DNA of 64,000 nt from Thermodesulfobacteriota bacterium. Its GTDB lineage: Bacteria; Desulfobacterota_D; UBA1144; Nemesobacterales; JAJCZQ01. Below are positions 15,701-17,169 of the stretch, in pieces (position 1 is the first letter of the stretch; every line of letters starts with the position of its first letter). Position numbers and translations under genes: made by a program. The notes under the pieces were generated by a model. It was not told where the DNA came from. It did no database searches and saw only the letters and a program-made list of their open reading frames with translations. The DNA is taken from assembly GCA_965215275.1 (NCBI GenBank), contig OZ244044.1, positions 224,001 through 288,000 of the forward strand. The letters are read 5' to 3'.

Positions 15701-17169
15701 GGGTCTGTAGGTCTGAACCTTTTGTAGATCTCCTTTATTGCATCTTCGGCCGTCTTGGTCTTATCCTTATCATCAAGGAGCGTGTTCCTGAGAGAAGCAG
15801 AAACAGTATCATCGTCTATGTAAAAGACCTTGAACTTTTCTACGCTGTTTTTCTTCAGACCATCTATTACTTCGTCTGTGATTGGTTCATTGAAATCAAC
15901 AAGTATTTCACCCGTGTCCGGGTCCATTATATCCTCAGCACAAAAATATTTTTCCTTATCTGTGGTCAGACCCGTGATCTCGTTCTTATCTATCGGAAAG
16001 ACGTCAACTCCGGCTTTTTCAAGCTTTCTTAACGTTCCTTGCCCGAACCTCATATCTTTGCGGACAAGCGTGTCACCTGATTTTTTATCAACTATATCCA
16101 CACTGGCCTTCTGGTATTTTATAGTTTCTTGATTGATCTCTTTTTCAAATCCTTCCTCCGTTATATGAATGACCTCAACGGGATAATAGTAGTTCATTAT
16201 CTCACGTGGACCATAACCCATGGCCTTGAGAAGTATAGTGACGTGGAATTTTTTCTTTCTGTCTATCCTTACGTGCATCAGGTCCTTTGAGTCAAACTCA
16301 AAATCCAGCCATTTACTGCCTTCCTGGGGAATTATCCTTGCAAAGAAGGAACCTTTACCAAGCGAACTGTCCTTGCTCTTACCGAAGAACACCCCCGGCG
16401 AGCGATGTAGCTGGTTTACTATTACTCTTTCGGTTCCGTTTATAATGAAGGAACCATTACCGGTCATAATGGGAAGTTCGCCAAAGTAAACTTCCTGTTC
16501 CTTTATCTCCCGGATGTTCTTCTTATGTGATATTTCTACGGTTGCACCGGCTGCCTCTAATTTCTTCCTGACATCCTTAGCTTCTTCCTCTTCGGAGTAA
16601 TGCTCCACCTGCACGCCGTCTTCAGGGTCCTTAGAGACCAGTGCGATCAGGTCCTTGGCCCCTTTAACTCCCAGACCGGCAACTTCCTTTACGGTTTCGA
16701 TGACCTTATTTTTATCTTCACCGATCTGCTTCAGAGCAACCGTGTATGAAACGTCCCATACTATAAGTCTGAAAGTCACGTGCAGAGGAGAAACGTAGGT
16801 GTATCCTTTTAACCTGCATTCCCCTTCTTCATACTTGGGGTCGTCCAGTTTGTACCTTACATACTCCAGGCTGGATCTCTTGTTACTGTCCTCAACGGGA
16901 AAGACCGTCTTAAAAGCTGCATGCAGCCCTTTTGGCTCCCTGTCTTCGTGTTTTATTTCAGCCTGTAGGAAATCTCTGTAGGACTTGGTCTGAACTTCCA
17001 GCAGATGTGGGATATTTAAAACGTTCGGTATTTTAGAAAAAACCTTTCTATACAGGTGTCTCTCGTGTTTCTGCGCTCTCAGGTCAGATACGCTGTCTTT
17101 GCCAGCAGCTGTGAGCTGTGCCGTTATATGTCTTTCGTTTTTTTGTGCTCTCAAATTAGATACCCTCAA
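12709..17169 (-). CDS. rpoB: RNA polymerase beta subunit with an inserted L7/L12 C-terminal-like domain
   Basis: [32 protein letters not shown]. The start codon is uncertain (TTG 17169 or TTG 17154). Confidence 0.99.
16528..16749 (-). other. Ribosomal protein L7/L12 C-terminal domain-like insertion within RpoB (aa ~141-214)
   Basis: [35 protein letters not shown]...[20 protein letters not shown] aligns to the CTD of the adjacent RplL. Confidence 0.93.
17056..17163 (-). repeat. Duplicated 12-aa motif at the RpoB N-terminus (72-nt period)
   Basis: [12 protein letters not shown] (aa 3-14) vs [12 protein letters not shown] (aa 27-38). Confidence 0.85.

Follow-up and report, generated by a model that had tools for sequence, protein, structure and literature searches.

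Insertions into the beta subunit of bacterial RNA polymerase (RpoB) were reportedly catalogued as beta-In1 to beta-In12 by Lane and Darst in 2010, and the source of most RNA polymerase insertions is too old to trace. According to the available text of a 2024 survey of RpoB insertions (PMC11515920), BEAN and HABAS domains occupy five sites in the regions uD2-uD5 and none in uD1, and the gene neighbourhood may have played a part in how such insertions were acquired. The CTD (C-terminal domain) of ribosomal protein L7/L12 (bL12), whose interaction with translation factors is treated in the accessible portions of PMC6076264 and PMC5207388, also occurs outside the ribosome, and bL12 domains are described as variably placed in larger phage proteins (PMC6375957, available text). 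In the beta1 domain of Escherichia coli RpoB, the residues I117-K118-E119 form the edge strand to which the RID of Mfd binds, and CarD binds likewise. The available part of the same study (PMC3001067) reports that RID binding shifts the register of beta1 strand 4 by two residues, that a flexible loop, which joins strand 3 to strand 4, absorbs this shift and that the RID strands arch over beta1.

We analysed a 64,000-nucleotide stretch of Thermodesulfobacteriota DNA (the window), on the minus strand of which the genes are ordered tuf-secE-nusG-rplK-rplA-rplJ-rplL-rpoB-rpoC (Table 1). In the 1486-aa open reading frame of rpoB, a 74-residue domain lies in frame, flanked by LIVWDV on one side and [14 protein letters not shown] on the other, and translation bore out the approximately 74 extra residues of the original prediction. 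Because about five loop residues were replaced, the net gain relative to the nearest insert-free relative is about 69 residues rather than 74. The insert is a complete L7/L12 C-terminal domain. An HMM scan of RpoB with Pfam PF00542 matched profile positions 1-66 of 67 with 45.3 bits (E 1.1e-11), or 48.7 bits when the insert was scored alone, where the curated cut-off is 25.9 bits. BLASTP aligned the insert with the neighbouring RplL at 33/72 identities (46%) with one 6-residue gap, in agreement with the identities previously counted by eye (17/34 and 14/20); in an alignment, the insert has a six-residue addition that is absent from true L12. All 14 sequence matches of the insert among solved structures were L7/L12 (1dd3 at E 3.9e-10). 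The N-terminal dimerisation domain PF16320 was found by Pfam in RplL and not in RpoB, and the ClpS family had no Pfam match in RpoB at E 0.01. A complete rplL with both Pfam domains still stands beside rpoB, as had been claimed.

The translation start of rpoB is likely a TTG at 17154, 8 nt behind GAGGG, giving 1481 aa; we infer this start, and a cluster of related RpoBs includes a member of that length. At the 5' end of the gene, a 34-bp segment (17092-17125, minus strand) has a near-copy of the rpoB start region on either side. It matches G000:C1:685976-686009 in the same genome in another frame at 31/34 positions (E 1.5e-5). The gene at that position is presumably truA-like, as named by its motif. 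The segment gives RpoB an N-terminal extension of roughly 22 residues, which is also found in RpoB P0003 and not in the related genome G001, and it suggests a second, small DNA capture in rpoB.

Table 1. Coordinates of the features discussed; positions are those of the window except for the family f6 inserts, which are given by locus.
Feature	Position	Strand	Basis
rpoC, without L12-like domain	8555..12718	-	Pfam, relatives
rpoB	12709..17169	-	only copy in genome
I222-K223-E224 (E. coli beta I117-K118-E119)	16498..16506	-	alignment to E. coli K-12
L7/L12 C-terminal domain inserted as RpoB residues 141-214	16528..16749	-	Pfam, BLASTP, alignment, model and fold match
Last 26 nt of insert, 25/26 identical to rplL end 17209-17234	16528..16553	-	
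rplL (L7/L12), intact; CTD 17209-17412	17206..17595	-	Pfam, BLASTP, trees
rplJ (L10)	17624..18139	-	Pfam; L12-binding tail length
Family f6 RpoB insert	L119:9123-9359, L125:8974-9195, L129:9022-9240, L133:9068-9286, L140:9110-9343	-	

Among 120 genomes of the phylum, the insert is confined to one genus: a second PF00542 match above the cut-off in the RpoB frame was detected in two, the window's genome (G000) and G001, the two genomes of genus g1. L12 was not matched in three of the 120 genomes, and another two matches, in short frames, fell short of the cut-off. In total, five RpoBs carry the insert (P0002, P0003, P0004, which is that of G001, P0157 and P0158), with identities among them of 55-92% in the insert and 84-97% elsewhere in RpoB. 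In a tree of 42 RpoB sequences from which the insert columns were left out, the five formed one clade with a support of 1.0, nested in family f1, which implies one gain of the insert on the genus stem. Among the best 150 of 535 matches (50% representatives), no other clean RpoB had an L12 domain within it, and at least 80 related genome loci included none with the insert among the matches listed. The junction pattern had five matches in metagenome contigs, all in unrelated genes. When long proteins containing an L12 CTD were sought, the yield was only P0003, or nine non-RpoB or frameshifted proteins, and these outcomes are weak negatives. The ESM Atlas returned only generic RpoB clusters, under 0.9.

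Given that rplL and rpoB are adjacent, a false join of the two genes during assembly could in principle mimic such a domain, and rplL/rpoB chimeras do exist in databases, with five among the best 150 of 535 representative matches and a sixth also found. The five are frameshifted or abruptly joined, and the three that were checked (P0033, P0045 and P0064) are singletons that are likely assembly artefacts, although they mark the same hairpin. The insert in the window is only 46% identical to rplL, is found in five diverged RpoB sequences and lies within contigs that independent studies assembled. In study P2 a contig runs over 16442-16920 with no differences, and in study P7 one runs over 15500-17700 with no gaps and 88 differences, so that both cross the two junctions, a check that the original prediction had proposed for reads, while a contig of study P4 bridges the 16528 junction. 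At the contig level, both junctions were spanned in three of the eight runs compared, one of them possibly the window's source, the other runs covered only parts, and a joint skipping the insert was seen in none of the eight. Because independent contigs span the insert and diverged orthologues carry it, the artefact reading is refuted, and we regard a false join as practically excluded. As a side observation, chimera P0033 is joined at an F-D-V shared by the two proteins. A microhomology between W/F-D-V of RpoB and F-D-V of L12 was also considered as the junction of the genuine insert and was rejected, as the insert starts three to four codons earlier.

The insert is closest to L12 proteins of its own lineage. 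Its mean identity was 0.53-0.57 to the L12 of its own family, 0.49-0.54 to that of other members of the order, 0.46-0.47 to 66 outside L12s and 0.40-0.41 to 195 mobile L12-like repeats. In an L12 tree (FastTree) of 109 rows and 55 columns, comprising 39 own-order L12s, the five inserts, 25 of the 66 outside L12s and 40 of the 195 repeats, the inserts grouped with all 39 own-order L12s and one mobile copy with a support of 0.88, a grouping too broad to point to the rplL of the genus itself. The end of the insert coincides with the last L12 residue, and apart from its own position the insert matches the genome only at the end of rplL, in the 25/26-nt match. Judged from these sequence comparisons, the neighbouring rplL is likely the donor. 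The distance from the end of rplL to the conserved rpoB start is 77 nt in four family genomes, 156 nt here and 352 nt in E. coli. The insertion could have arisen by a duplication of about 0.7 kb, reaching from the L12 CTD to about codon 140 of rpoB, and the stop codon of L12 and the second start of rpoB would then have been lost; alternatively, one template switch would suffice. The match with rplL over the last 8-9 codons is near-identical, though approximately 60% of synonymous sites elsewhere differ, and the G001 insert agrees in these codons as well, while the G001 rplL does not. This pattern suggests retention or gene conversion.

Alignment to E. coli K-12 placed the insert at the tip of the beta1 hairpin, where it replaces beta residues 107-114. 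To model the fold, AlphaFold2 was run on residues 41-636 (596 residues) with an alignment of 36 rows, five with the insert and none from L12, giving a mean pLDDT of 82 and a pTM of 0.56, with pLDDT of 74-91 in the insert blocks. Although built without L12 rows, the model has the L12 element order beta-alpha-alpha-beta-alpha-beta. In a comparison with 48,161 chains, the modelled insert matched L7/L12 chain 8yeq_A with a Z score of 12.5 and an rmsd of 1.6 over 71 aligned residues, ahead of ClpS, so that the structure prediction proposed earlier points to an L12 fold. The beta1 domain of the model matched 3mlq_A, the Mfd-bound Taq beta1, with a Z score of 24.7 and an rmsd of 1.9 over 183 aligned residues. 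With the whole 596-residue model as a query, the best 50 Foldseek matches were polymerases only, and a MoeA-like match of this RpoB falls in model residues 286-411, outside the insert. Model strands 86-109 and 169-193 run unbroken from the polymerase into the insert and back. Since the L12 fold begins and ends with strands that are adjacent, it can replace a hairpin tip, and the two strands are predicted to extend the two hairpin strands in a cassette-like fit that leaves beta1 intact.

By alignment, the loop replaced by the insert is the same loop that absorbs the Mfd-induced register shift, and this position, which the original prediction did not point out, provides a more direct functional lead than a link to translation. 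One reading is therefore that the insert is kept because it tunes the binding of Mfd and CarD, either by stiffening the hairpin or by contacting their RIDs, which, if true, would alter transcription-coupled repair or promoter opening. The position of the insert at beta 107-114, ending 7 residues ahead of the IKE motif, is consistent with such tuning, as are the shift-absorbing role of the strand 3-4 loop and the arching of the RID over beta1 in the available text of PMC3001067. Both partners are also encoded in the family, with Mfd found in all five genomes and CarD in four, and the C-terminal block of the domain, from which strand 4 continues, is better conserved than its counterpart in mobile L12-like repeats: the inserts retain 0.58-0.75 of its 12 conserved columns, the repeats a median of 0.42. 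On the other hand, this retention may reflect recent origin only, the IKE motif is unchanged in all five insert-bearing RpoBs and the RID strands of Mfd and CarD in the insert-bearing genomes had no evident change by eye relative to those of relatives. In the model, an extended strand of eight residues parts the domain from IKE, and CarD was not found in G001, a genome that is 80% complete. We consider the tuning of Mfd or CarD unlikely as the reason for keeping the domain. Loss of Mfd or CarD from the family was ruled out by the same counts. The insert also amounts to a natural experiment with the beta1 hairpin, to which Mfd and CarD dock via a register shift.

The dN/dS analysis that the original prediction had called for indicated purifying yet relaxed selection on the insert. 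Between G000 and G001, the insert had a dN of 0.315, a dS of 1.19 and thus a dN/dS of 0.27 at 55% identity, compared with 0.074 at 88% identity for the rplL CTD and 0.095 at 84% identity for the rest of RpoB, values that come from one genome pair with dS near 1 and from a simple counting method. Neutrality was rejected (p 2e-5) and the insert evolved faster than the rplL CTD (p 1e-6) with a normal synonymous rate. None of 130 sliding windows along RpoB was as divergent as the insert.

We take V66, I69, R73, L80 and K84 (E. coli numbering, as used below), together with K65 and K70, to be the conserved factor-binding residues of the two L12 helices. In all five copies of the insert V66 is replaced by N or D, L80 by V or A and E88 by A or K, and in two copies, including that of the window, K70 is replaced by E and E82 by G. 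Meanwhile, K65 and K81 are kept in all five, K84 in four (R in the other) and K70 and R73 in three. According to the available text of PMC10602876, changes at K65 or K70 weaken the binding of L12 to EF-Tu; the three copies with both lysines thus represent another branch of the genus that retains the residues tied to this binding. PMC3505967 and PMC12179292 yielded no residue data. For the helix face tied to GTPase binding, the substitutions indicate partial erosion in the insert. As a control, the 195 mobile L12-like repeats kept L80 in 94% and had V/I66 as I in 64%, and with 0.55-0.65 of 20 conserved columns of the two-helix block retained in the inserts, the loss in this block is not extreme, as 28-65 of the 195 repeats are as low.

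These data bear on the link between transcription and translation factors that was originally proposed, for which we found no positive evidence. On that proposal, a working stalk domain would weakly bind EF-Tu, EF-G and IF2 and thereby enrich them near a coupled lead ribosome, or sense them, and such binding, if retained, would represent a new kind of transcription-translation link. The whole L12 fold is kept in the model, selection on the insert is purifying and the native affinity of L12 for its factors is already weak (PMC5207388, available text), and the pattern of retained residues, with K65 and K81 in all five copies, would allow binding mainly in the branch that keeps K65, K70 and R73. 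Nevertheless, the insert changed five-fold faster than the L12 CTD even though EF-G domain I is 89% identical between G000 and G001, several L12 surface residues that are otherwise close to invariant are replaced, K70 is reversed to E in the copy of the window and residue 66 is polar in all. The domain is also present as one rigidly held copy, without the hinge or the 4-6-fold valency of the stalk, and the normal stalk is intact, with both domains in rplL and an L12-binding tail of usual length in L10 (47 residues here and 48-52 in relatives). A complex prediction of the insert with EF-G domain I of the same genome gave scores of 0.02 and 0.01, which weigh neither for nor against binding. We consider recruitment of translational GTPases distinctly unlikely and less likely than retention as a folded cap. 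Compensation for a reduced stalk was ruled out as a separate explanation by the unchanged length of the L10 tail (8 of 13 genomes parsed).

Alternatively, the domain may have been repurposed to bind a new partner, such as upstream DNA or a factor specific to the lineage, through the six-residue segment and the acidic helix that follows it. This segment, which L12 lacks, has no gaps across the five copies and is invariant in part (DGV..E.YS.E.EAKD), and L12 CTD repeats are found in unrelated proteins fused to TIR, kinase, nucleoside phosphorylase and Hsp70 domains. No candidate partner was identified, however, and the five sequences form two tight groups (89-92% identity within groups) that overstate the invariance; a new partner is in our estimation very unlikely.

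We therefore favour, with a probability of roughly 55%, the reading that a local duplication of rplL is the likely source of the domain and that the domain is likely kept as a folded surface cap rather than as a general recruiter of GTPases. Selection would preserve the fold of such a cap because misfolding of the appendage would damage an enzyme that the cell cannot do without; the GTPase-binding face would meanwhile drift. Counting against this reading, K65 and K81 persist in every copy, the loss in the helix block is not extreme, and 39 of the 74 insert positions are the same in all five copies without a gap, among them charged residues within the six-residue segment and beyond it, which may exceed what a passenger would need. 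The likeliest side effect would be on the register shift of the adjacent strand on which Mfd and CarD dock.

Other RpoB insertions were also observed. In the sister family f6, all five RpoBs examined carry an insert of 73-79 residues at about E. coli beta 352-360 (Table 1). Its profile aligned with that of L12 with an hhalign probability of 69% and a score of 28.2, where the maximum of 100 column shuffles was 16.5. Its model (pLDDT 72) is one helix short of the L12 fold, with weak Foldseek matches to ferredoxin-like folds; no L12 chain was among the Foldseek matches listed, and no match of any kind was found at E 0.001. An L12-like nature of the f6 insert is thus only partly supported. The same family also has a 22-residue RpoB insert near the N-terminus and an RpoC insert of roughly 250 residues. 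Loci L121 (G011) and L135 (G025) have RpoB inserts of 120-140 residues near position 605-608 of the G012 protein, with internal repeats of a DIHDPxTGEK-like motif. The more far-reaching proposal that a captured, working stalk domain binds translational GTPases and that capture beside the Mfd/CarD strand has been repeated and useful is, in our view, well on the improbable side.

Outside RNA polymerase, PF00542 was found in 37 of the 40 matches scanned, in many of them as repeats joined to TIR, kinase, phosphorylase or other domains. Tandem L12-CTD repeats fused to TIR domains were found in 8 of the 40, and others follow a lipoprotein-like signal or accompany a nucleoside phosphorylase domain; the repeat proteins are P0020, P0023, P0029, P0068, P0086, P0099, P0116, P0148, P0112 and P0007. 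The TIR fusions look like sensor-effector proteins.

Compared with the described systems, the insert shares with the bL12 CTD (PF00542; 1dd3, 1ctf, 8yeq) its sequence, fold, glycines, core and K65/K81, but it lacks the dimerisation domain and hinge, occurs only once, joined to RpoB at either end, has six extra residues, has V66, L80 and E88 replaced and evolves with a dN/dS of 0.27 rather than 0.07. ClpS/N-recognin has the same fold (Z 9.8-10.8), but its identity to the insert is 14-16%, compared with 31-40% for L12 chains. Mobile bL12 modules, including tandem repeats, likewise use the L12 CTD as an insertable unit (PMC6375957, accessible text). The insert differs from them in residing in an essential core enzyme, in its greater similarity to the host L12 and in the loss of L80. 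As the mobility of L12 domains is already known, what appears to be new is the presence of such a domain in RNA polymerase.

As modelled, the insert is a lineage-specific RpoB insertion, namely an in-frame domain in a surface loop, limited to one clade, with the host domain intact. The domain identity and site in the original prediction were upheld by PF00542 and the alignment; its absence from described insertions agrees with the available text of PMC11515920, in which L12 does not occur. We found no published report of an L12 domain in RpoB among the literature listings searched, and the combination with a traceable donor and a regulatory hot spot apparently has not been reported. BEAN and HABAS insertions, in the available text of PMC11515920, are comparable in that a whole surface domain is found in one clade with the host domain intact. 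By contrast, the insert has another fold, matching L12 rather than BEAN (CATH 3.90.105.10, shared with MoeA), and lies in beta-uD1 (E. coli 1-152), outside the five sites. It thus adds a fold and a site that are not listed in the available text of the 2024 survey. Unlike BEAN and HABAS, it is confined to one genus and its donor is identifiable next door, which makes it an unusually clear and recent capture by a core polymerase subunit, with donor and recipient both readable.
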